A DNA stretch of 64,000 bases from a virus, in IMG/VR virus record IMGVR_UViG_3300031963_011573, positions 1 through 64,000 of that record; one strand, 5' to 3'. The first letter of the stretch is position 1. The number at the start of each line of letters is the position of its first letter. Shown one piece after another: positions 3,353-45,769 of the stretch. The position numbers and the translations under genes are program-made. Below the pieces are notes generated by a model. It did not search any database. It saw only the letters and a program-made list of their open reading frames with translations, and was not told where the DNA came from.

Positions 3353-4072
3353 ATGAAATTTAAAATTACATTCATATCAGACACTCACGGAAAACACAAC
3401 CAACTAACAAAAGATCTACCAGGTGGAGACATATTAATTCATGCTGGGGATTTTATGAATGCAGGTTACTATAAAACAGAAGCAATTGAATTTTTCAATT
3501 GGTTTGATGCAATCAACAACTACGATACAAAAGTATTTATTGCAGGAAATCATGACCGTTTAATGGAAGATGATTCAACATGGGCTCAAGGTTATTTAAC
3601 AGGATTTAAAACAATAGATTATTTACAAGACGAAGAAATAGGAATATACCACGATGATTTAAATGGAGACCACTCAGAAGATAATATTCATATTTATGGT
3701 TCACCTTGGCAACCTGAATTTTTTAATTGGGCATTCAATTTACCTCGAAATGGTAATGAATTGAAAGAACGTTGGAACATAATACCCAACAACACAGACA
3801 TTTTAGTTACACATGGCCCTCCATTTGGATTCCTAGATATCCCAGGACATGGTACTCCAATGAATGTTGGTTGTGAGATGTTACGTTATCGAATAGATGA
3901 ATTGCGTCCAAAAATACATGTATTCGGGCATATTCATGGTAGTGCAGGTTACTATTTTAATGGACATACTCATTTTATAAACGCATCTGTTTTAAATGAG
4001 AGATATGTTTATGAAAATAAACCACTAACATTTGAATGGGATAATATAACAAATGAAATTCAGTGGTTATAA
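3353..4072 (+). CDS. calcineurin-like metallophosphoesterase
   Basis: SDTHG, AGD, GNHD, THGPP and GHIH motifs. Confidence 0.9.
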   Translation: MKFKITFISDTHGKHNQLTKDLPGGDILIHAGDFMNAGYYKTEAIEFFNWFDAINNYDTKVFIAGNHDRLMEDDSTWAQGYLTGFKTIDYLQDEEIGIYHDDLNGDHSEDNIHIYGSPWQPEFFNWAFNLPRNGNELKERWNIIPNNTDILVTHGPPFGFLDIPGHGTPMNVGCEMLRYRIDELRPKIHVFGHIHGSAGYYFNGHTHFINASVLNERYVYENKPLTFEWDNITNEIQWL

Positions 4073-4124
4073 GAGGAATAGGCTTTTAAAAAAAATTTTC
4101 GTATATTCAAGTAAAATAAAGGAA

Positions 4125-4349
4125 ATGGCAAAAGTAATTTTAGAATTTGATCCAATTGAAGATAGAGATGATATGGAAAACGCTATCAATGGATGGAAAT
4201 GGAAAACGTTAGTATGGGATTTAGACCAGCATTTACGATCTGAATTAAAATACAATGATGCAATTACTGGGGATGTATATGATGCTTTAGAAAAAATTAG
4301 AGAGCATTTACATGAATTAAAAAATGAAAGTGGATTAACTTTAGAATAA
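4125..4349 (+). CDS. hypothetical protein
   Basis: Start reassigned to the ATG after the promoter cassette. Confidence 0.75.
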   Translation: MAKVILEFDPIEDRDDMENAINGWKWKTLVWDLDQHLRSELKYNDAITGDVYDALEKIREHLHELKNESGLTLE

Positions 4350-25279: not shown

Positions 25280-25324
25280 ATAGTTAATTCGTATATTTAA
25301 GTATAATTAAAAAAATAATAAATT

Positions 25325-25531
25325 ATGAAAAGGTATTTAAAAGTTGATTTTGAATTAAGTTTTACAAGTATTTGTGATACTAAAGAAGAGGTAATTGAGG
25401 GGTGTGGTTATGATATTGATGAAATTACATTTGAGGAGTTGTTAGAGGAGGTAAAGGGTGTTTATGAAATTATTGAAATTGAAGGTGATGTTAGATGGTT
25501 GAATGATGTTGATGATGAAGATGAGGAATAA
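25325..25531 (+). CDS. very acidic small protein (possible DNA mimic)
   Basis: D/E-rich; own cassette. Confidence 0.7.
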   Translation: MKRYLKVDFELSFTSICDTKEEVIEGCGYDIDEITFEELLEEVKGVYEIIEIEGDVRWLNDVDDEDEE

Positions 25532-25581
25532 GTAGATTAAAAATAAATTAGTATATTTTAGTATAATTAAAAAGATAAGTT

Positions 25582-25782
25582 ATGAAGTTTGAAAGTATTA
25601 AAGAATTAAATTTGTTTATTAATGAATATGATGAGGTAGATTTTGTAAGTGAGAAAGATGAGGTAGAGTTTTTAGAATTAGTAAATAAAGAGTTAGTAAA
25701 TTATAAAAGAAAGAATCCTTTTAATGTAAATAATTGTTTGATTAAATTAGAAAATAAAGGGTTGTTAGATAAGTTTTGTTAA
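25582..25782 (+). CDS. hypothetical protein (near C-free gene)
   Basis: Own cassette. Confidence 0.7.
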   Translation: MKFESIKELNLFINEYDEVDFVSEKDEVEFLELVNKELVNYKRKNPFNVNNCLIKLENKGLLDKFC

Positions 25783-25844
25783 GGATTAAATAAATTAAAT
25801 CAAAATTAGTATATTTAAGTATAATTAAAATAAAAATAAAGGTT

Positions 25845-26183
25845 ATGGAAAGAAATGAATTAGTTAAAAAAGCTTTAGAAGCAGGGATTACAAAAGCAAA
25901 TACTATGAAGAGTGTAGTATTGGAAGAAATGTTAAAAGAATTAGAAGTTAAGAAAACAGGTAAGAGAGGAAGACCAATTAATGAAGACAGTGTTAGACAA
26001 AAAAGAATTAAAGAATTAGAGAATAAAAGAATAAATGGAGAATTGAAAAAAGGACGACCAGTAAATGAAAATAGTGTTAGACAGATGAGGTTAAAAGAGA
26101 TGGAGTTAAAGAGAATGAATGGAGAGTTGAGAAGAGGAAGACCAAAAATGAATAAAACGGATAATAATGAGGTAGCCGCTTAG
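25845..26183 (+). CDS. AT-hook-repeat DNA-binding protein
   Basis: KRGRP, KKGRP and RRGRP with a duplicated NE.SVRQ.R.KE.E.KR.NGEL unit. Confidence 0.7.
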   Translation: MERNELVKKALEAGITKANTMKSVVLEEMLKELEVKKTGKRGRPINEDSVRQKRIKELENKRINGELKKGRPVNENSVRQMRLKEMELKRMNGELRRGRPKMNKTDNNEVAA

Positions 26184-26195
26184 GCTACCTTTTTT
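26170..26195 (+). terminator. intrinsic terminator
   Basis: AGGTAGCC-GCTTA-GGCTACCT followed by a T-run. Confidence 0.75.
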
Positions 26196-26240
26196 AATTT
26201 ATTAATTAGTATATTTAAGTATAATTAAAAAATAAAAGTT

Positions 26241-26366
26241 ATGAGCAGAGAAGAATATTTAGAATTAAAATTAATGGCGTTTCTAGTGACACAAGAATTA
26301 GCTTGTGAGATTTTATTTTTACCAGGTACATTTAAATTTGAAGACGCAATTATAAGACCAAATTAA
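26241..26366 (+). CDS. small hypothetical protein (41 aa)
   Basis: Read manually; own cassette. Confidence 0.55.
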   Translation: MSREEYLELKLMAFLVTQELACEILFLPGTFKFEDAIIRPN

Positions 26367-26367
26367 T

Positions 26368-26607
26368 ATGAGAAGAGTAGACATGATAAAGAAGCTTCAA
26401 TTAGCGGAAGCTAAAGCATGGGTGACAATGATGGAGTGGGGTAAGTTATTCGGCCATAATGAACAATATGAAATAAAAGCGAGTGCGTGGAATAGTTTAT
26501 ATTCAGCGTTATTAACACTCAACTTAGAACCAGATCGCGAATTACGAGCACAGTTAATTGAAGCGGATATAAAATGTAATGGCTTAACAGGGACTAATTT
26601 TAACTAA
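26368..26607 (+). CDS. hypothetical protein (resembles 20505)
   Basis: MIK..Q..EA...W pattern. Confidence 0.7.
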   Translation: MRRVDMIKKLQLAEAKAWVTMMEWGKLFGHNEQYEIKASAWNSLYSALLTLNLEPDRELRAQLIEADIKCNGLTGTNFN

Positions 26608-26648
26608 ATTGGCTTCGTATATTTAGTCATAATTAAAAATAAAATAAT

Positions 26649-26855
26649 ATGAAGAGCTTAGAAAATTTTATTGACGACAATTTTAACGAATTTAGTAATT
26701 TAGATTGCAGTGAAGTGATTGAGTGTAGTTTAGATGAGTTTGATAGTGTTGAGATCGAATACTTAAAAGAGCATTATAGATTCGATTATAAAGACATTTG
26801 TGTTTATTATGTTGAGGAGAATGATGAGATATGGATTGAAAATATGGCGAGTTAG
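26649..26855 (+). CDS. acidic small protein
   Basis: Own cassette. Confidence 0.7.
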   Translation: MKSLENFIDDNFNEFSNLDCSEVIECSLDEFDSVEIEYLKEHYRFDYKDICVYYVEENDEIWIENMAS

Positions 26856-27045
26856 GGAATAATTTTAATAAAATTAGTTTAGTATATTTAATTATATTTA
26901 AAAATAAAAAATAATATATTTAATTTAATAAAAAATAAAATTATATTTAAATAAATAATATAATATAAAGGATTAAATTTAAATAAAATTATTTAATATA
27001 TTTAAATAAATAAAATAATTAATTAATAATTTAAAATTTAAAATT

Positions 27046-27276
27046 ATGGAGGATTTAAAATTAAAATTAGAAGAATTAGGATTAGAAGTTAATTATGTTG
27101 GGGAGGATAATAGTGGATATGAAGATGATGGTTATTTAAATATAAATGGAGAAATAGATATATTTGAAGGGGCATACCAGAAATGGGATATTTATATAGA
27201 AGAGGGAGATATAGAGAAAAGTTTTATGAGTGATGATGAGTTAATTATGTTTTTAAAAGATTATATTAAGGAATAA
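27046..27276 (+). CDS. acidic small protein (near C-free gene)
   Basis: Own cassette. Confidence 0.7.
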   Translation: MEDLKLKLEELGLEVNYVGEDNSGYEDDGYLNINGEIDIFEGAYQKWDIYIEEGDIEKSFMSDDELIMFLKDYIKE

Positions 27277-27346
27277 TTTTAATTAAATTAATTTAATATA
27301 TTTAAATAAATAAAAAATAAATAATTAATAATTTAAAATTAAAGTT

Positions 27347-27604
27347 ATGAAGGAAAAAAGAGAAATGTTATTAAAAAGATTAAATGTTTTAGTTAAAGGA
27401 AGAGAAAGAGAGTTTTTATTGTTTATGGAGGAGGTAGATGGGAGTTTAAGTGAGGAAAGAATAAATGAGGATTTAGATATATTATTAAATAGTTTTATAT
27501 ATTTTGAAGAGGATAATAATGAGGAGGAATTTACAGAGGAAGTAATGGAGGAAGTATTAAACATTTACATCCCAGGATTTGAGAAAGGGGAACATATTTT
27601 TTAA
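27347..27604 (+). CDS. acidic small protein (near C-free gene)
   Basis: Own cassette. Confidence 0.7.
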   Translation: MKEKREMLLKRLNVLVKGREREFLLFMEEVDGSLSEERINEDLDILLNSFIYFEEDNNEEEFTEEVMEEVLNIYIPGFEKGEHIF

Positions 27605-27629
27605 TAATTAAATAATAATAGAGGAAGGA

Positions 27630-27666
27630 GGAAGGGCCACCTAGGAATAGGTGACTTTCCTTTTTT
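27630..27666 (+). terminator. terminator closing the early region
   Basis: GGAAGG..CACCTA/TAGGTG..CTTTCC followed by a T-run. Confidence 0.65.
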
Positions 27667-27970
27667 AAAATTTAATCCTGAGGAATAGGCTCCTGTAATA
27701 TAGTATATATATGGTATATATTACGTTAGAGGATATATAGGGGTACCACGTACGTTGATATCAATATACGGCGGAGGTATTGGGGAAGGGCATTTAGACC
27801 ACTTTACAGATCGTAAATGATCTTTACACATCGACATTGTATATAACTATATACCCACAACTAAAACTAAATTTCCAAAATGCAAAAAAAGGACAAAACT
27901 CCACAAAACCAAAATCTTCTTTCTTTAAAAGATCTTTGGCATCGATATAGGATATACGTATATTTAAAAT

Positions 27971-31118: not shown

Positions 31119-31913
31119 ATGAATTTGACAGCCGAACAAATCCAAGATAATTGGAATGAATTAATGAGGTATATTAATGAATATATTTCTGAACCACGTA
31201 AAGAAAAATTATTAGCTTTTTATGAGCAATATGCTGAACGTTTAATGTTAATGCCTGCCGCGCATAAAAAAGAATATCATAATGCTTTCCCTGGAGGGTA
31301 TGTAGAACATGTTTTACGTGTTATTAGGTGTGCTATACATCAAGCGGCATTATGGGAATTAGAAGGAGCCGATATGACTACTTTCACAACTGAAGAATTA
31401 ATATTCTCAGCTTTAAATCATGATTTAGGTAAAATGGGATCCGAAGATGAAGATTCATATATCCCCCAGACTGATCAATGGAGAAAAGATAAATTAGGAG
31501 AAGACTACATGTTTAATACCAAAGTACCATTTGCTTCAGTTCCAGATAGAGGATTATTTATGCTCCAATCTCATGGTATCCAGTATACATTTAATGAAAT
31601 GGTTGCCATTCAAACACATGATGGTTTATATGATGAAGGTAATAAAAAATATCTTATGTCATTTATGCCAGAACAAAAACCAAGAACATCTTTACCTTTT
31701 ATTTTACACCAGGCCGATTTAATGGCAGCACGAATTGAATTTGAACGTGAATGGTTACCTAAATTAAAAGAAGGTAAAAAATCCGTGGATATTAAAAAGG
31801 AAAATTTTACATTGGGGAATAAACCCAATACATCAAAAAAACAATCAACCAAAACAAAAGCTTTGGGTACATTTAAAAGTGAAGGTTTAAAAAATATATT
31901 TGATAATTTATGA
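31119..31913 (+). CDS. HD-domain phosphohydrolase (YhaM-like)
   Basis: PAA..YHNAFPGGYVEH, NHDLGK, THDG, HQAD. Confidence 0.85.
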   Translation: MNLTAEQIQDNWNELMRYINEYISEPRKEKLLAFYEQYAERLMLMPAAHKKEYHNAFPGGYVEHVLRVIRCAIHQAALWELEGADMTTFTTEELIFSALNHDLGKMGSEDEDSYIPQTDQWRKDKLGEDYMFNTKVPFASVPDRGLFMLQSHGIQYTFNEMVAIQTHDGLYDEGNKKYLMSFMPEQKPRTSLPFILHQADLMAARIEFEREWLPKLKEGKKSVDIKKENFTLGNKPNTSKKQSTKTKALGTFKSEGLKNIFDNL

Positions 31914-39459: not shown

Positions 39460-39818
39460 ATGAAAATATAAAATTTCAAAAGCAGGTATTTAATAAGGGG
39501 GATTATTCTAAAATAATAGATACTTCTTTTAAACAACTTGGTGTTCAAACAATTCAACAACAAATTGAAGAACAACCAACTGTTGAAGATTTTTTTAATA
39601 TGTACAATGATTTATTTTACGATATACCTGAAACAGGAGAAATAAATTCACATGAATTTCTAATCAAAAAAAGTAGTGAATATATTAATTTTGACCCAAA
39701 CCAGGAAGAAATAGAAGCATTACAAGCTGAAATAGCTCAATTAAGAACAGATTTACTTGATTCACAAAAACAAGTAATAGAATTACAAACAGGAACAACA
39801 TTAGCTAACCCACAATAA
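39456..39818 (+). CDS. structural-module hypothetical protein
   Basis: Translationally coupled. Confidence 0.75.
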   Translation: MNENIKFQKQVFNKGDYSKIIDTSFKQLGVQTIQQQIEEQPTVEDFFNMYNDLFYDIPETGEINSHEFLIKKSSEYINFDPNQEEIEALQAEIAQLRTDLLDSQKQVIELQTGTTLANPQ

Positions 39819-42800
39819 TGGCAGCAGAAATTATTCAAATTGATACCCAAACCTTTACTTCACAAACATATGAAGGACAAGATACAAACTTGATCCCTAC
39901 ATTTGAAGTTCCTACTAATCTTTCAGAAAATAGTTATATTGAATATTTTACATATGACAATAATCAAAATATACTAACTTCTGACTACAATTTTACCCAA
40001 TATACAATTCAAAATGATGGTCAATCCGCTGGTAATGAAGGAAATATATCTCAAATAATAGTAGATCCTGAACAAGTTTTAGTAAATAATGGATTTGATC
40101 AAGGAGAATATATTACATATTTTAATTTTTTCAACAAACAAGTAGGTTCTAATCTAGAACAACTTTATATCTCAGAAATATCTTCTGATAGAACAGAAAT
40201 TCGTTTAGATAGTACTGTTCTTTCCAATCCTGATATTGTAGAGCAAACTACAAAATTCATTAGTGAACGAGAAAACAGTGAGTATTTTTTAGATTTTTAT
40301 TTAAACTTTGGTGACAACCAACTTATCATATCAAATAATGTTGTTTTAGATAATCAAGACCCAACTAATCCAACAGTATTAATTAAACTATATGAACCAT
40401 TACCTGAAGAATTTGATATAAATTCTACATTATGGGTAGTATCTCTTGTTGAAGAACCGAGAGCATATCAAGTTACTTTTGAGGAAGAACCTATTATTTT
40501 TGTAGATACCGTTAATATTAGTGGACCTAATTTTAATTTAGATATAAAAGATCAAGTAAATAATTCAACTTTAGAATTATCATATATTGATTTAATTACT
40601 ACATCTTTAACAAGTTCTCAAAACCAATTAAATAGTTTATTAGAGGAAAAAGAAATAGATATAAACGTAGACTATACAGATTTTTCTAATTTTGTACATT
40701 TTAGTTCAGCACAAACACGTTTAGAGAATTTTTACTATAAAACCCAATTAATAGAACAATACTCTTCATCTATTGCTGTATTAAATAATACTGTTAATTC
40801 CCCATTAAATGTTAGTAGTAGTGCTGCTGTATATGAAAGTAAAATAAGTGAAATCATAACCAATTTTGATGGTTATGAATATTTCTTATACTATGAAAAT
40901 AACCCATATACTTGGCCTAAAACTAATAATCAAAAACCATATACTTTAGAAAAATCAGATAGTACAATTGTTTTATCTTGGATTGGAAGCACAAATGAAT
41001 ATAGTCCATATTATGGAGGTTTAATTTTATCTGCCTCGTTATACGATAATAACAATAAAGATAACCTTTTATTTACAATCCCTGAATATCTAAGAGACGA
41101 TCCTGAAAACAACCAATATGAATTATTTGTTCAAATGGTTGCTCAACATTATGATAATATTTGGATATATTATAAAGAGGTAACCCAAAAATATAATGCT
41201 GATAACCGTTTAGAATACGGTATTTCAAAAGATATAGTAGCGGATGCTATTCGTGATTTTGGAGTTAAATTATACCAAAACAATTTTTCAAATGATGATT
41301 TATACACCGCATTCTTAGGTATCACACCAGAAGGTGGTTTATTCCCTTTCCCAAATATAACAGGATCTTTACCTACCCCTCCAGGATTTGAATACATAAA
41401 CACTTTAATTTCAGCATCAAACGATTATATGCCGTTAGATGATGTAAATAAATCGTTATATAAACGCATTTACCATAATTTACCATACCTGCTTAAATCA
41501 AAAGGTACTTTACCTGGTTTACGTGCTTTAATTACTTCATACGGTATTCCTGATACTATTTTAAGAATTAATGAATTTGGAGGGAAAGATAAAATAAACG
41601 TAAACGATTGGGATTCATGGCAAAATGAATTTAACTATGCATTTAATACTTCAGGAAGTAATTTTATATCTTCATCATGGGAGTTAAATCCTACTTGGAA
41701 TGCTCCAAATAATGTTCCTTCAACATTGATGTTTAGATTTAAAACAGATGGTCTTCCTTCAAACAATATTCTATACTCTCAAAGTTTATGGTATGGTGAT
41801 GGAGGAAGTGCTTTAGTATTAAAATACACAGGGTCAGCATATGTAAGTGAATCATATTCTGGTTCAATAATTGACCCGTATTACCAATATGCTAATGTAA
41901 TATTTTACCCTGATGTAAATAATTCTACCCAAACAGCAAGTGTTTATTTACCATTTTATAATGGTGGATGGTGGTCTGTAATGGTTACTAAAAATTCAAA
42001 TACTTATACATTACATTCACAAAATAAAATATATGAGGGAGGGGATAATGGAACTCTTTTAGGTTTTAAAGCATCTAGTTCTATAACATATGCTTCTAGT
42101 GCTTGGACTAATACTTCTACAAGTTATTTCCCTGTTAGTTTCTCTATTTCAGGTACCATAGGATATGATATATCAGCATATGATGTTGGAGTATATGATG
42201 AGGTAGGAAATTTAGCAGGATCATTTATACCATTTGTTGGAGCTTACCAAGAAATTAGATATTATACAGTCCCAATAAGTGAAAGTGTATTCATAGACTA
42301 TACAATGAACCCACATTCAGTTGAGGGAAATTCATTAAATAGCTCTCCAGATGAATTAGCTTTTAGAGCCTCAATTGGAGGAGAACAATACACAGCTTCA
42401 ATTTCTATACATCCTAAAGTAACTGGATCTTGGCAAACAACTCATTCATTTGCCTCTGATAGTAATTTTTACTATGATACTTCACCTAATTTTATACCAA
42501 ATGTTGAATATACTTTTGCTGATCAACCTATAGCAGGTATTAAAAATATTGTAAATGATAAAATTAGAGTAGAAAATAATGTATTACCTGAGGGAGATAC
42601 TTTATCTCAATATAGATCACTTTCTCAACAAGCTAATATATCCCAAAGTTATACCCCAAGTATTAACTATTTAGAGGTAGCATTTTCACCACAAAATGAA
42701 ATTAATGAAGATATAGTTGATCAACTTGGATATTTTAACATAGGAGAATTTATTGGAGACCCTAGATTAAGATCATCATCAGCTGAGTCATACCCTGCGT

Positions 42801-45769
42801 TAGATCAATTAAGGAATGAGTATTTCACCAAATACGTCAAAAATTATAACTTAAAAGATTTTATACGTTTAATTAAGTTTTTTGACAACTCATTATTTAA
42901 AATGATTAGAGATTTTGTACCCGCACGTACAAGTCTTGCCTCTGGTATTGTTATCAAACAACATTTACTTGAAAGAAACAAATACCCACAACCTCAAATG
43001 TCTTGGGAAAACTTAGATATTTCTGGAACTTTAAAACCAACATGGAATGGGTATGAACCTGGAACAGTAGAAAATTTTGAAGGTGGAACAGGAGGTTCTT
43101 TTGAACCATTTAATCTAGCAACTAATGTATCTCAAAGTTGGTATGAAACTATTCAAACCCTTTCAGGCTCAGTAAATATATTACACAATTCACAAGATGA
43201 GTTTTATAATGGAGAATTTAGTGGCTCAACTATTTTAATTTCTGATGGGATTGTAAATGAAGCTTATCCTATAGAAAATAAAGCATTTGATTACAAACAA
43301 ATATACTATTATGGGACTTCATCTAAAGAAAGTTCTGTATTTGAAGATAATTTTTTAAACCCTAATACCTCCCCAGAGGATGGAGAAATATTGTTTTTTA
43401 GTCAAGTTAAAAGAGTAAAAGTTTCTTTAATTTTCATTAATGTTTATACTTTTAAATATTTAAAAATTGCTAAAACTGATTGTAATGGAAATAATAATGA
43501 TGTTCCGTTAAGTCAAACAAAGAAAATTTTAGTTAATACTCCACTTTCAACAGGAACTTTTGTTATAGAATATGATGTTACACTTATAGGTGAAAGTGGT
43601 AATTATTACTTATATGAAATAAGTTCTGCTAAAAAACAAGGAATCTTTACACCTTATAGTCCTTTTGGTTTCCCAAACCAAGTATTAGATTATTACGTAT
43701 CTGCTTCAAAAACCACCACAGACCCATTTTCCTCACAACCCATTAGAGTAACTAGTTGGCAATCTGAATCAGGAGATGTTCTTGGATATTTCAACCCAAT
43801 TTCAGGAATATATAATTTACAAAATACCCCCAACACACCTCTTATAATTTCAGCATCATTTAATGTATCCCAATCAGGTGCAGGAAGTGCTGGTACATGT
43901 TCTATTTCATTTTTTGATAGTATTGCTAATAAAGTATCAACCAATTTAGCTTCAGTAACTTTCCCATCAACTTTTACTGGAACAAAAACAGTATCAACTA
44001 CCTACTATGGAGTAGAAGGAGAAAATATTTGTCTTTCAATTAAAGGAGGAACCAATGTTAAATTAACTGGTTCAAATTTACTTATCACCCAAAGTAGAGC
44101 AGTAAGTTCCTCAAATTGTGAAAGTTTAATTCTTGAACCTTACATTTCTCTTCCGAATTTTTATAATAGCGATGAAAATGCTTTAATTAATAGTGTTGAT
44201 GGATTAAGAGATAGCTCTTATTATATGGATGTTGATTACACATCAGGTATAACAACCCCAGTTAATTTTAATCAATTAATAGATGGAAGTGCTACTAGAG
44301 CAAAAGTACAAGATTCGAATTATACAACTAAACGCCATATCCTTCCTAGATATGAAGGTTCAAGATCAACTTCCCAATTTTTAAACAAATGGTCCTTTAA
44401 TGATGTTGGTACTTTTGGTAAATTACCAACAATTGAAAATGTAAGTTCATTTGTTGCTTATGCTCCTAGTATTGGAGGATGGCCTCCTGAACGTATGAAT
44501 GCATCTGCTATATTTATAAAATATTTAATTGACCAAAACGGAGATGTTTTAATCCCCAATACATCTGAAAATTCACTATCAATTACTCAACAAAATTTTA
44601 GATCAGGAGATAAAGTAAGAATCACAGTTCCATCTCAAGGAAGTGGAGAAGTATCTAATTTAAGAACAATAATTAGAGGGGGTACTCGTATTGAACCTAT
44701 TTTATATACTCAATTTGGAAGTACTCCAAATGCACAATGGAATACAACAATAAATTTTGAAGATATTATTCCTTCTGATGCTGGAGTTGTAGGAAACTAC
44801 ACAGCCTTATTTAAAAAAACCAATATCCAATTCCCCATCCCTCAGAATGGTACAACTTTAATTATTTTTCAACAATCAATTTATGGAAATTCCTATTATA
44901 ATACTAATGGGTATCAAATACCTTCTTCAGCTATTATTGATGGAGTTAATTTAATATTTGAAGCCCAAGTTAAAATAGATGGTGATTTTATTGGTTTTGG
45001 TACTTACGTTGTTCAAATATTTAATTCTACTACAGGAAAGGTATTAGGTGAAGTTTCCAATAAAAATAATCCTGCTTATTCATCTCCAAATTTTAACGGA
45101 ATTTTTTATGTATCTGCAACTTTAAATAACTCCCAACTTCAAACTAATGATATTATAAAAGTTCAACTTAAAACTAGTACTGTTAATCCTTTAACTTTAA
45201 TCCAAAGTAATTCCACCTCCTTTAAAATCACTCAATACCCAGCCTATACAACCCCAATAACATCTTCAGGGGTTAATTCAATTTGGGGATATGCAGATAC
45301 AACAAATTATCCATATGTTATAACATCTTCTAATTCAACTTTAGTTGAGTTATATGACTCAAATGTTAAACAATCCAATATATCAGGATCAGGATTTAAT
45401 CCTATATCTTTACCTTGGTCTATAAAATATGGGGATGAATTTAGATTTGAGGGAAGAGAAGACTTTACATTTATTGTAGGACAAGTATTCAACCCTGCTG
45501 AAAGTGGCTCAGGACGTTTATTTGAAACAGGATCTATTGAAGTCCATTTTAGTACTAATCTCCCAGTAAGTGCTAGTTCCTCGATATTTAATTTAGACCA
45601 TTTTTTAATTAGAAGATATGTTGATGATGCTTCACAAATTTTAATTGAAGGATTCAAACCAGTAAACACAAATGGACCATACATTATAACCCCAGAATAT
45701 GTAACTGATTCATTAAACAAAAACGCTGATACATTTATTACGGATCTTACCGAAAGAGGTTTGCTCTAG
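39818..45769 (+). CDS. large baseplate/tail structural protein (1983 aa)
   Basis: IPEYL, LLKSKGT..GLRALI..YGIP and FVPAR motifs typical of baseplate wedge proteins; context. Confidence 0.7.
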   Translation: MAAEIIQIDTQTFTSQTYEGQDTNLIPTFEVPTNLSENSYIEYFTYDNNQNILTSDYNFTQYTIQNDGQSAGNEGNISQIIVDPEQVLVNNGFDQGEYITYFNFFNKQVGSNLEQLYISEISSDRTEIRLDSTVLSNPDIVEQTTKFISERENSEYFLDFYLNFGDNQLIISNNVVLDNQDPTNPTVLIKLYEPLPEEFDINSTLWVVSLVEEPRAYQVTFEEEPIIFVDTVNISGPNFNLDIKDQVNNSTLELSYIDLITTSLTSSQNQLNSLLEEKEIDINVDYTDFSNFVHFSSAQTRLENFYYKTQLIEQYSSSIAVLNNTVNSPLNVSSSAAVYESKISEIITNFDGYEYFLYYENNPYTWPKTNNQKPYTLEKSDSTIVLSWIGSTNEYSPYYGGLILSASLYDNNNKDNLLFTIPEYLRDDPENNQYELFVQMVAQHYDNIWIYYKEVTQKYNADNRLEYGISKDIVADAIRDFGVKLYQNNFSNDDLYTAFLGITPEGGLFPFPNITGSLPTPPGFEYINTLISASNDYMPLDDVNKSLYKRIYHNLPYLLKSKGTLPGLRALITSYGIPDTILRINEFGGKDKINVNDWDSWQNEFNYAFNTSGSNFISSSWELNPTWNAPNNVPSTLMFRFKTDGLPSNNILYSQSLWYGDGGSALVLKYTGSAYVSESYSGSIIDPYYQYANVIFYPDVNNSTQTASVYLPFYNGGWWSVMVTKNSNTYTLHSQNKIYEGGDNGTLLGFKASSSITYASSAWTNTSTSYFPVSFSISGTIGYDISAYDVGVYDEVGNLAGSFIPFVGAYQEIRYYTVPISESVFIDYTMNPHSVEGNSLNSSPDELAFRASIGGEQYTASISIHPKVTGSWQTTHSFASDSNFYYDTSPNFIPNVEYTFADQPIAGIKNIVNDKIRVENNVLPEGDTLSQYRSLSQQANISQSYTPSINYLEVAFSPQNEINEDIVDQLGYFNIGEFIGDPRLRSSSAESYPALDQLRNEYFTKYVKNYNLKDFIRLIKFFDNSLFKMIRDFVPARTSLASGIVIKQHLLERNKYPQPQMSWENLDISGTLKPTWNGYEPGTVENFEGGTGGSFEPFNLATNVSQSWYETIQTLSGSVNILHNSQDEFYNGEFSGSTILISDGIVNEAYPIENKAFDYKQIYYYGTSSKESSVFEDNFLNPNTSPEDGEILFFSQVKRVKVSLIFINVYTFKYLKIAKTDCNGNNNDVPLSQTKKILVNTPLSTGTFVIEYDVTLIGESGNYYLYEISSAKKQGIFTPYSPFGFPNQVLDYYVSASKTTTDPFSSQPIRVTSWQSESGDVLGYFNPISGIYNLQNTPNTPLIISASFNVSQSGAGSAGTCSISFFDSIANKVSTNLASVTFPSTFTGTKTVSTTYYGVEGENICLSIKGGTNVKLTGSNLLITQSRAVSSSNCESLILEPYISLPNFYNSDENALINSVDGLRDSSYYMDVDYTSGITTPVNFNQLIDGSATRAKVQDSNYTTKRHILPRYEGSRSTSQFLNKWSFNDVGTFGKLPTIENVSSFVAYAPSIGGWPPERMNASAIFIKYLIDQNGDVLIPNTSENSLSITQQNFRSGDKVRITVPSQGSGEVSNLRTIIRGGTRIEPILYTQFGSTPNAQWNTTINFEDIIPSDAGVVGNYTALFKKTNIQFPIPQNGTTLIIFQQSIYGNSYYNTNGYQIPSSAIIDGVNLIFEAQVKIDGDFIGFGTYVVQIFNSTTGKVLGEVSNKNNPAYSSPNFNGIFYVSATLNNSQLQTNDIIKVQLKTSTVNPLTLIQSNSTSFKITQYPAYTTPITSSGVNSIWGYADTTNYPYVITSSNSTLVELYDSNVKQSNISGSGFNPISLPWSIKYGDEFRFEGREDFTFIVGQVFNPAESGSGRLFETGSIEVHFSTNLPVSASSSIFNLDHFLIRRYVDDASQILIEGFKPVNTNGPYIITPEYVTDSLNKNADTFITDLTERGLL

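Follow-up and report, generated by a model that had tools for sequence, protein, structure and literature searches.

Gene shuffling in the hyperplastic regions of the T4-type phages RB49 and phi1 is mediated by PeSL (promoter-early stem-loop) cassettes (Arbiol et al. 2010, PMC2839356). Here we describe a locus of comparable layout whose genes are in large part written without cytosine (C), at positions 25325-27604 of the window, i.e. the first 64 kb (64,000 nucleotides, nt) of a 106,060-bp virus contig (IMG/VR record IMGVR_UViG_3300031963_011573). As in PeSL regions, the locus belongs to a T4-type phage and lies in a block of small, putatively non-essential orphan genes, the content of which is shuffled among close relatives (PMC2839356). 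In both, a repeated strong early promoter and a stem-loop terminator flank each gene; here the promoters are predicted by motif, and a PeSL-type architecture is suggested by their ~38 copies together with terminator hairpins that, in the relatives, abut the next promoter. Two features set the locus apart: no compositional rule has been described for PeSL cassettes, whereas whole cassettes here lack one base, and the promoter is of the Bacteroidota type instead of sigma-70 with its -35 and -10 boxes.

Avoidance of the host termination factor Rho is known to drive purine bias, codon usage and amino-acid usage (Dierksheide et al. 2026, PMC13323073). According to the same work, Rho targets are marked by an excess of C over G plus T-richness, and where bacterial transcription runs ahead of translation, phage and other foreign genes are hindered (PMC13323073). 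The genes described here share with that bias a sense strand with more G than C, a high purine content, a reach into codons and amino acids, and a proposed barrier against phage or foreign genes. The published bias is however genome-wide and graded in bacterial genes, whereas the present one is all-or-none, concerns some units of a phage, and is linked to Rho by deduction.

Another line of work concerns phages of the same lineage that carry DpdA3, namely immuto, CP220 and phiST, which replace 100% of their G by 7-deazaguanines, with fdPreQ1 in place of every G in immuto (bioRxiv 10.1101/2023.04.13.536721). Complete relatives of the window likewise carry DpdA and the preQ0 pathway; that work however deals with DNA chemistry and restriction, draws no link to the composition of early genes, and includes in phiST a phage without a C-free tract. 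Finally, genes freed of a target site are known, such as ACA-less mRNAs that resist MazF, or first-entering phage DNA that avoids restriction sites, e.g. the first-step-transfer (FST) DNA of T5. There as here, a target is purged so that the gene may survive an attack; what is removed in those cases is a motif of 3-6 nt, whereas here it is a whole nucleotide, following transcript edges. Full-text literature searches found no description of cytosine-free phage genes.

Results

Cytosine-free runs close an early gene block

The three runs of the plus strand that hold no C (288, 324 and 355 nt; Table 1) have exactly the coordinates and sizes given in a preliminary description of this DNA, made from the sequence alone. 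They are the longest C-free runs of the whole 106,060-bp contig, in which the fourth longest measures 115 nt and runs free of G, A or T never exceed 87 nt. When each span was shuffled 2000 times, the longest C-free run obtained was 262 nt for 25325-27604, 173 nt for 24-28 kb and 151 nt for 4-28 kb. Per 100 nt, the tracts contain 0.4-0.5 C against 16-21 G. The span is nevertheless a mosaic: its description as genes written almost without C stands for the four open reading frames (ORFs) lying mostly inside the tracts, and fails for the C-containing genes found between them at 25845-26855. A chance origin of the runs was rejected on the basis of the shuffles and of the recurrence of such runs in independent assemblies and in one isolate. 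An assembly or chemical artefact was rejected as well, the ORFs being open, the homologues differing by more than C/T changes, and the runs recurring across many samples.

The block to which these genes belong carries ~38 copies of a promoter motif, TTTCGTATATT(N)AAGTATAA, which are spread over 4.1 to 27.96 kb, are confined to the plus strand and precede an ATG by 25-40 nt. The TATATT(T) core of the motif is similar to the Bacteroidota -7 box, TAnnTTTG. These copies agree with the earlier view of small, very acidic, early-type accessory genes that would each have their own promoter. The block is purine-rich, with C at ~0.10 (0.15 elsewhere), G at ~0.18 and a GC skew of +0.2 to +0.5, which reaches +0.47 to +0.53 at 24-28 kb. 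C content is as low as 0.046 at 25-26 kb and is back to 0.14 at 28 kb, just past the last terminator. The C-free tracts lie at the far end of this block, and the rest of the contig holds none of comparable length.

Similar tracts recur in related phages

Judging from its gene matches, the window covers part of the genome of a myophage of T4 type (gp23 capsid), a relative of Flavobacterium phage immuto. T4-type virion genes are present, with a match to the Gp23 major capsid family (PF07068, E = 3.9e-74) at 76536-77954 of the contig, and the large genes, all on the plus strand, match baseplate wedge, tail fibre, DNA ligase and exonuclease families. Among isolates, the Flavobacterium phages vB_FspM_immuto come closest, with a baseplate wedge protein that is 45% identical. 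A complete IMG/VR relative of 166 kb (G001) shares collinearity with the contig over 92 kb. FolE, QueD, QueE, QueC and DpdA of G001, along with replication genes, lie on the 74 kb that are missing from our contig, which itself holds no dpdA or preQ0 genes. Genes for DpdA and preQ0 synthesis were found in the relatives G001, G002 and G003, and QueF in none of five relatives; the DpdA of G001 is closest to the DpdA3 group (immuto, Campylobacter phage CP220).

Eighty IMG/VR loci were retrieved through the gene at 31119-31913 (77-92% identical). Tracts occur at the same relative position in ~15 relatives, 3-8 kb upstream of that gene in the loci that reach so far, with sizes of 977 nt (L005), 527 and 409 nt (L011), 576 and 353 nt (L023), 335 nt (L063/L064), and further runs of 284, 251, 241 and 223 nt. 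In G001, every C-free run of at least 97 nt (maximum 223 nt) falls within 98.9-107.7 kb, around the homologous end of the early block. Immuto has the same promoter motif and, at the homologous place, weaker runs of up to 158 nt. Two complete relatives, G002 (174 kb) and G006 (161 kb), share the promoter arrays, with a C content of 0.10-0.16 and no run above 70 nt; both encode QueC, and G002 also DpdA. When genomes are ordered by the identity of their flanking genes, those with and without tracts are intermixed. The genes at 25.3-27.6 kb are patchily present or absent among close relatives whose flanking genes are 77-92% identical, i.e. the cassettes are shuffled.

Many metagenome contigs (loci L002-L102) break 3-7 kb upstream of the reference gene at 31119-31913, in hypervariable DNA rich in promoter repeats. 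In a pattern scan of viral contigs for homologues of the gene at 25325-25531 (hereafter the 25325 family; eight loci), five of the eight contigs begin at most ~200 nt from that gene, at positions that vary. Breaks of this kind probably reflect assembly that stopped at repeats.

Run edges follow promoters and terminators

Our survey comprised 34 distinct C-free runs, each 150 nt or longer, from the window and its relatives. Fifteen of them start at a C inside a promoter: six directly after the C of the promoter core (TTC/GTATATT, the slash marking the start of the run), three at a variant core, and six after a C just before the likely start site (TATATT[AT]C/AGTATAA). At the other end, at least five of the longest runs stop at the first C of a GC hairpin followed by a T run, which abuts the next promoter. 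The core C is kept in six of the seven promoters at the 5' edge of a tract and in none of the eight promoters inside tracts, compared with 87% of ordinary promoters. The drift of the core reported earlier, from the promoter at 25288 through that at 25548 to that at 27293 (Table 1), was confirmed. It may be explained by read-through, by which internal promoters would themselves be transcribed, since C-free RNA cannot make a GC terminator hairpin. Judged by these predicted edges, the C-free runs behave as transcription units. Along the units C increases mildly from 5' to 3', and the gene at 27347 tolerates it over its final 71 nt, ahead of the terminator.

Two units can be delineated in the window. 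The first comprises the promoter at 25288, a gene, the promoter at 25548, a gene, a promoter at 25806, a C-containing gene and a terminator; the second comprises three C-containing genes, a spacer almost devoid of G and C with stacked promoter cores, two low-C genes and the terminator that closes the block. Both plus-strand terminators of the window sit in C-containing DNA.

Substitutions point to selection against cytosine

Clustering of the ORFs of the window and its relatives yielded 12 families with a mean C content below 0.025, the distribution dipping at 0.03-0.04. In these families 592 of 3660 aligned nucleotides differ (16% divergence), and C takes part in only 35 of the differences (5.9%), the corresponding share being 27% for families with 4-9% C and 39% for normal families; C/T changes make up 22 of the 35. 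At codon position 1 the missing C is replaced by G (+9 points) and not by T (+1), which argues against C-to-T decay. The ratio of nonsynonymous to synonymous substitution rates (dN/dS) is 0.06-1.7 overall and 0.14-0.73 for genes of the window, values that are overestimated because T-to-C synonymous changes are barred. From these alignments we read that selection keeps C out, and that neither chance nor C-to-T decay would do so. The loss of C among homologues, which the preliminary description had proposed to compare, points to a nucleotide-level constraint that reaches protein composition.

The same contrast is seen between paralogues. The Lys/Arg-rich protein with GRP repeats is found in most relatives, often as two paralogues (at 3973-4293 and 6229-6651 in L080). 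In one genome, two such paralogues lying 2 kb apart behind the same promoter type have C contents of 0.062 and 0.175; their Arg codons are AGA in 11 of 14 cases in the former, and CGN in 12 of 14 in the latter. The C-rich copy (48% G+C) looks like a recent import.

Proteins encoded in the tracts

Ala, Pro, Thr, His and Gln together account for 3.1% of the residues encoded by the four tract ORFs, compared with 16.8% for the remaining early genes and 22.7% for late ones, which bears out their reported near lack. Leu, Arg and Ser are encoded only by TTR, AGR and AGT, with no CTN, CGN or TCN codon, and 4 of the ~99 codons ending in a pyrimidine (Y) end in C. Asp and Glu represent 28.8% of the residues. 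That the ORFs are real is supported by homologues in many metagenomes, by the dN/dS values of the window genes and by the fold predicted for the 25325 family.

This family comprises 114 clusters in metagenomes, with a mean charge of -12.7 and a composition of 0.1% Ala, 0.1% His, 0.3% Pro, 0.8% Gln and 4.3% Thr, the latter at conserved sites. Its predicted fold is beta-beta-alpha-alpha-beta (predicted local distance difference test, pLDDT, 88). Two Cys are invariant (C17 and C27), in a conserved EEVIEGCGYD motif, and could form a metal site or a disulphide. Members inside tracts have 0-3 C, whereas in two tract-less genomes the gene has 10 C, including the synonymous codons ATC, AAC and GAC. 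No Foldseek match was obtained for the family at E <=0.001, and the tract proteins belong to no Pfam or PHROG family, with sub-threshold matches only in the ESM Atlas; no match thus pointed to the anti-defence role put forward in the preliminary description. In the gene at 27046, the Ala and the Gln of the one cluster of C-containing codons are kept in relatives. Some relatives encode proteins of 137 and 138 amino acids (aa) with 0-2 C.

The residual C of low-C genes are found mainly at Thr and Pro codons. Genes with less than 3% C (from the window and from loci L002-L081) retain 80 C in all. Not one of these precedes a G, against an expected ~8-10, and half of them precede a T; ACT is favoured over ACA, the opposite of normal genes. 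A toxin-resistant mRNA of the ACA-less type was rejected as an explanation of the tracts, as all C are missing and not a motif, and the residual C are in Thr and Pro codons. A tRNA cluster at 523-1713 comprises Thr-TGT, Asp-GTC, Leu-TAA, Ser-TGA and Ala-TGC, and three of these five phage tRNAs read codons of amino acids that the C-free genes avoid. A tRNA cause was rejected, since synonymous NNC/NNT pairs that share one tRNA are likewise purged of C.

Neighbouring features

The coordinates of the locus are collected in Table 1. The spacer at 27277-27346 is, like the longer one upstream, almost A/T only, with the promoter-like core at 27293, and the leaders of the last two genes (27046 and 27347) are near-duplicates over ~60 nt. 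The segment 27605-27960 is non-coding, with ~350 nt after the last terminator that hold TATATA runs and the abutting palindromes GGTACC, ACGTACGT and TTGATATCAA; base composition switches there from G>C to C>=G. This stretch could be an origin, a pac site or a regulatory region. Further downstream, a 1983-aa ORF of the tail module lies at 39818-45769, with no PHROG match.

Table 1. Features of the low-cytosine locus and of the block that contains it (window coordinates).
Feature	Position	Strand	Remarks
Small early-type gene block with many promoters	4098-27965	+	~60 small genes, 24 kb
Promoter at the 5' edge of the first low-C unit (predicted)	25288-25310	+	Core C kept (TTCGTATATT)
Gene, 68-aa acidic protein	25325-25531	+	3 C, all within Thr codons
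C-free run, 288 nt	25429-25716	+	Covers the end of one gene, promoter 25548 and most of the next gene
Internal promoter (predicted)	25548	+	TTAGTATATT; inside the 288-nt run
Gene, 66-aa protein	25582-25782	+	2 C forming one Pro codon; dN/dS 0.14-0.19 against relatives
Gene, Lys/Arg-rich protein	25845-26183	+	20 C; three K/R-GRP repeats (~34 aa) resembling AT-hooks
Intrinsic terminator (predicted)	26169-26191	+	GC hairpin and T run; ends the first unit
Promoters (predicted)	26206 and 26614	+	Precede the C-containing genes of 26206-26855
Three C-containing genes	26241-26366, 26368-26607, 26649-26855	+	13, 31 and 11 C; GC palindromes; interrupt the C-free DNA
C-free run, 324 nt	26849-27172	+	Includes a ~190-nt almost A/T-only spacer (26856-27045)
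Stacked promoter-like cores	26879, 26993	+	In the A/T spacer 26856-27045
Gene, 76-aa acidic protein	27046-27276	+	3 C clustered in GCA-TAC-CAG (Ala-Tyr-Gln)
C-free run, 355 nt	27179-27533	+	Includes promoter 27293
Internal promoter (predicted)	27293	+	TTAATATATT; core without C and without G; inside the 355-nt run
Gene, 85-aa acidic protein	27347-27604	+	7 C, all in the final 71 nt, including synonymous AAC, TAC and ATC
Intrinsic terminator (predicted)	27624-27668	+	Hairpin and T run; closes the early block

Discussion

We propose that the C-free tracts would be transcription units of early type, formed by exchangeable accessory gene cassettes, in a T4-type phage whose candidate hosts are Flavobacteriia. 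Each unit would start near position +1 of its promoter and stop at an intrinsic terminator, and purifying selection would strip sense-strand C from leader, coding sequence, spacers and read-through promoters alike, in such a way that RNA polymerase would insert no C, and read no template G, before the terminator hairpin. The 15-letter amino-acid alphabet of the proteins would be a side effect. A purge of C over whole units means that the transcript needs no cytidine triphosphate (CTP), that no template G is read, that no GC hairpin forms, and that Rho meets no YC dinucleotide; per 100 nt, YC occurs 0.2-0.4 times in the tracts, 4.3 times in the early block and 7.1 times in late genes. The reading that we tentatively favour is that the first transcripts are hardened against premature termination, with the host factor Rho as the most likely agent. 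Rho requires nascent RNA that contains C, is unstructured and is rich in T/U, and it forms a barrier against foreign genes; RNA without C is also unable to form GC hairpins. The role of the motif as an early promoter for host RNA polymerase, the early expression of the units and the part played by Rho are inferred. Rho is favoured because the excess of G over C and of purines extends over the whole block and stops at its edge, because C is tolerated just before the terminator and rises mildly along the units, and because published Rho avoidance shapes sense-strand composition and hinders foreign genes (PMC13323073).

Several points weigh against this proposal. In the published Rho score, any stretch with G>C already has zero excess C (PMC13323073), and Rho avoidance thus fits the skew better than an absolute zero of C over 355-977 nt. 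The two complete relatives G002 and G006 share the promoter arrays and yet keep C at 0.10-0.16 without tracts, which indicates a patchy pressure, not obviously expected of a housekeeping factor. The relaxation of C towards the 3' end is weak, since it comes from one gene family and a slight gradient. Furthermore, expression timing and transcription start sites are deduced from motifs, as is the role of Rho in the C-free units, for hosts that are a candidate group.

Two other explanations place the pressure on the nucleotide itself. In one, which we hold to be rather unlikely, the phage avoids modified G in the template, a C-free sense strand allowing unaided host RNA polymerase to read virion DNA. 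Complete close relatives encode FolE, QueD, QueE, QueC and a DpdA3-like DpdA, DpdA3 phages including immuto replace all of their G (bioRxiv 10.1101/2023.04.13.536721), and 7-substituted 7-deazaguanines are the most inhibitory modifications for bacterial RNA polymerases in vitro, although the effect is on initiation, with no shorter transcripts (PMC4838386). Such avoidance would account for the strand specificity, the purge at every site, the unit edges, the contrast between early and late genes and the internal promoters without G or C, and immuto itself has C-free runs at the homologous place. Yet G002 and G006, with DpdA and/or QueC and the same promoters, show no C depletion, most early genes behind the same promoter hold ~10% C, promoters at tract edges retain a CG core, and no tract is found in the first 50 kb of CP220 or in the whole 79-kb genome of Cellulophaga phage phiST (100% dDG). 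The case of phiST is weakened in that dDG is the smallest adduct and that phiST has its own RNA polymerase; the modification state of our phage is, for its part, deduced from relatives, as the contig is without the dpd region. A near-equal alternative, to which we give a little less credence, is immunity to a C-directed attack, either CTP starvation or the viperin-type chain terminator ddhCTP (3'-deoxy-3',4'-didehydro-CTP), counter-defence or takeover genes being written without C. As noted in the preliminary description, mRNAs of the C-free genes need almost no CTP. Bacterial viperins produce ddhCTP, which terminates RNA chains (PMC10732462), and evasion of it predicts selection at every site of the transcript, with C only in the terminator, as well as a patchy spread among close relatives, as for host-specific counter-defence genes; the genes themselves are small orphans that evolve fast, within a hypervariable block. 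Of the readings considered, it best fits the per-site purge together with the patchiness. Against it, no viperin or CTP-depleting system is tied to the putative hosts, the remaining phage genes (~15% C) would still need CTP, and the seven C in the final 71 nt of the gene at 27347 would truncate its message.

The remaining explanations are less probable still. Weakly structured mRNA could favour fast translation in Bacteroidota, which do without Shine-Dalgarno pairing, in cold waters, the removal of C abolishing G-C pairs; the folding energy of the C-free tracts is indeed about -7 kcal/mol per 100 nt, compared with -12 to -14 in other parts. We regard this as improbable: many C-containing, A-rich windows of the early block fold as weakly or more weakly, zero C is not needed, translationally favoured NNC codons are avoided, and, since a single C cannot build a hairpin, no purge at every site is predicted. 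Mutational decay, in which C would be deaminated to U with a strand bias, either on the displaced non-template strand or close to a replication origin, would suit a strand-specific bias in heavily promoted genes and the share of C/T changes among the differences that involve C. It appears very improbable, as the run edges are sharp and track promoters and terminators with no regional gradient, as same-strand neighbours behind the same promoter type have normal C, and as C gives way to G at codon position 1 in a state that persists through 16% nucleotide divergence. We find it hardest to believe that, as initially put forward, this is the genome end injected first, from which restriction sites containing G/C are kept out. 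The logic is sound, given that a strand without C holds no G-containing palindrome, and the tracts adjoin the non-coding stretch with palindromes at 27.6-27.95 kb; T5 first-step-transfer DNA, for example, is not known to carry EcoRI sites. The DNA is however not restriction-proof: the span holds 16 GC-containing 4-mer palindromes, two AAGCTT and one TCGCGA, all in the interleaved C-containing genes, next to 206 AT-only 4-mer palindromes, and palindromes are mildly avoided across the genome (most ratios 0.75-1.0; CATG 0.56), to no greater degree in the early block than elsewhere. Nor does an end seem to lie here, the capsid being of T4 gp23 type. Packaging in T4 is headful and is not known to use a fixed end. 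The assembly of the complete 166-kb relative closes as a circle with the region internal, contig break points are scattered, neither of these gave a terminus signal near the region in the relatives, and run edges follow transcription signals. The lineage moreover probably modifies its guanines already; 7-substituted 7-deazaguanines block type II enzymes (PMC4838386), so that G-containing sites would already be shielded if G is modified as in immuto.

Whatever the agent, a sharp strand-specific rule with edges at promoters and terminators points to something that acts on early phage transcription in Bacteroidota, the candidates being Rho, a defence directed at nucleotides, or a cost that the phage incurs by modifying its DNA. 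Natural genes that do without one base, and hence without five of the 20 amino acids, show how hard a pressure at the nucleic-acid level can push protein sequence, and their products may offer, according to the fold prediction, natural examples of folded proteins built from a 15-letter alphabet. If evasion of ddhCTP or of CTP starvation were true, it would represent a sequence-level immunity of the genes that need to be expressed first. The C-free signature could serve as a simple way to find immediate-early or counter-defence cassettes in uncultured phages.

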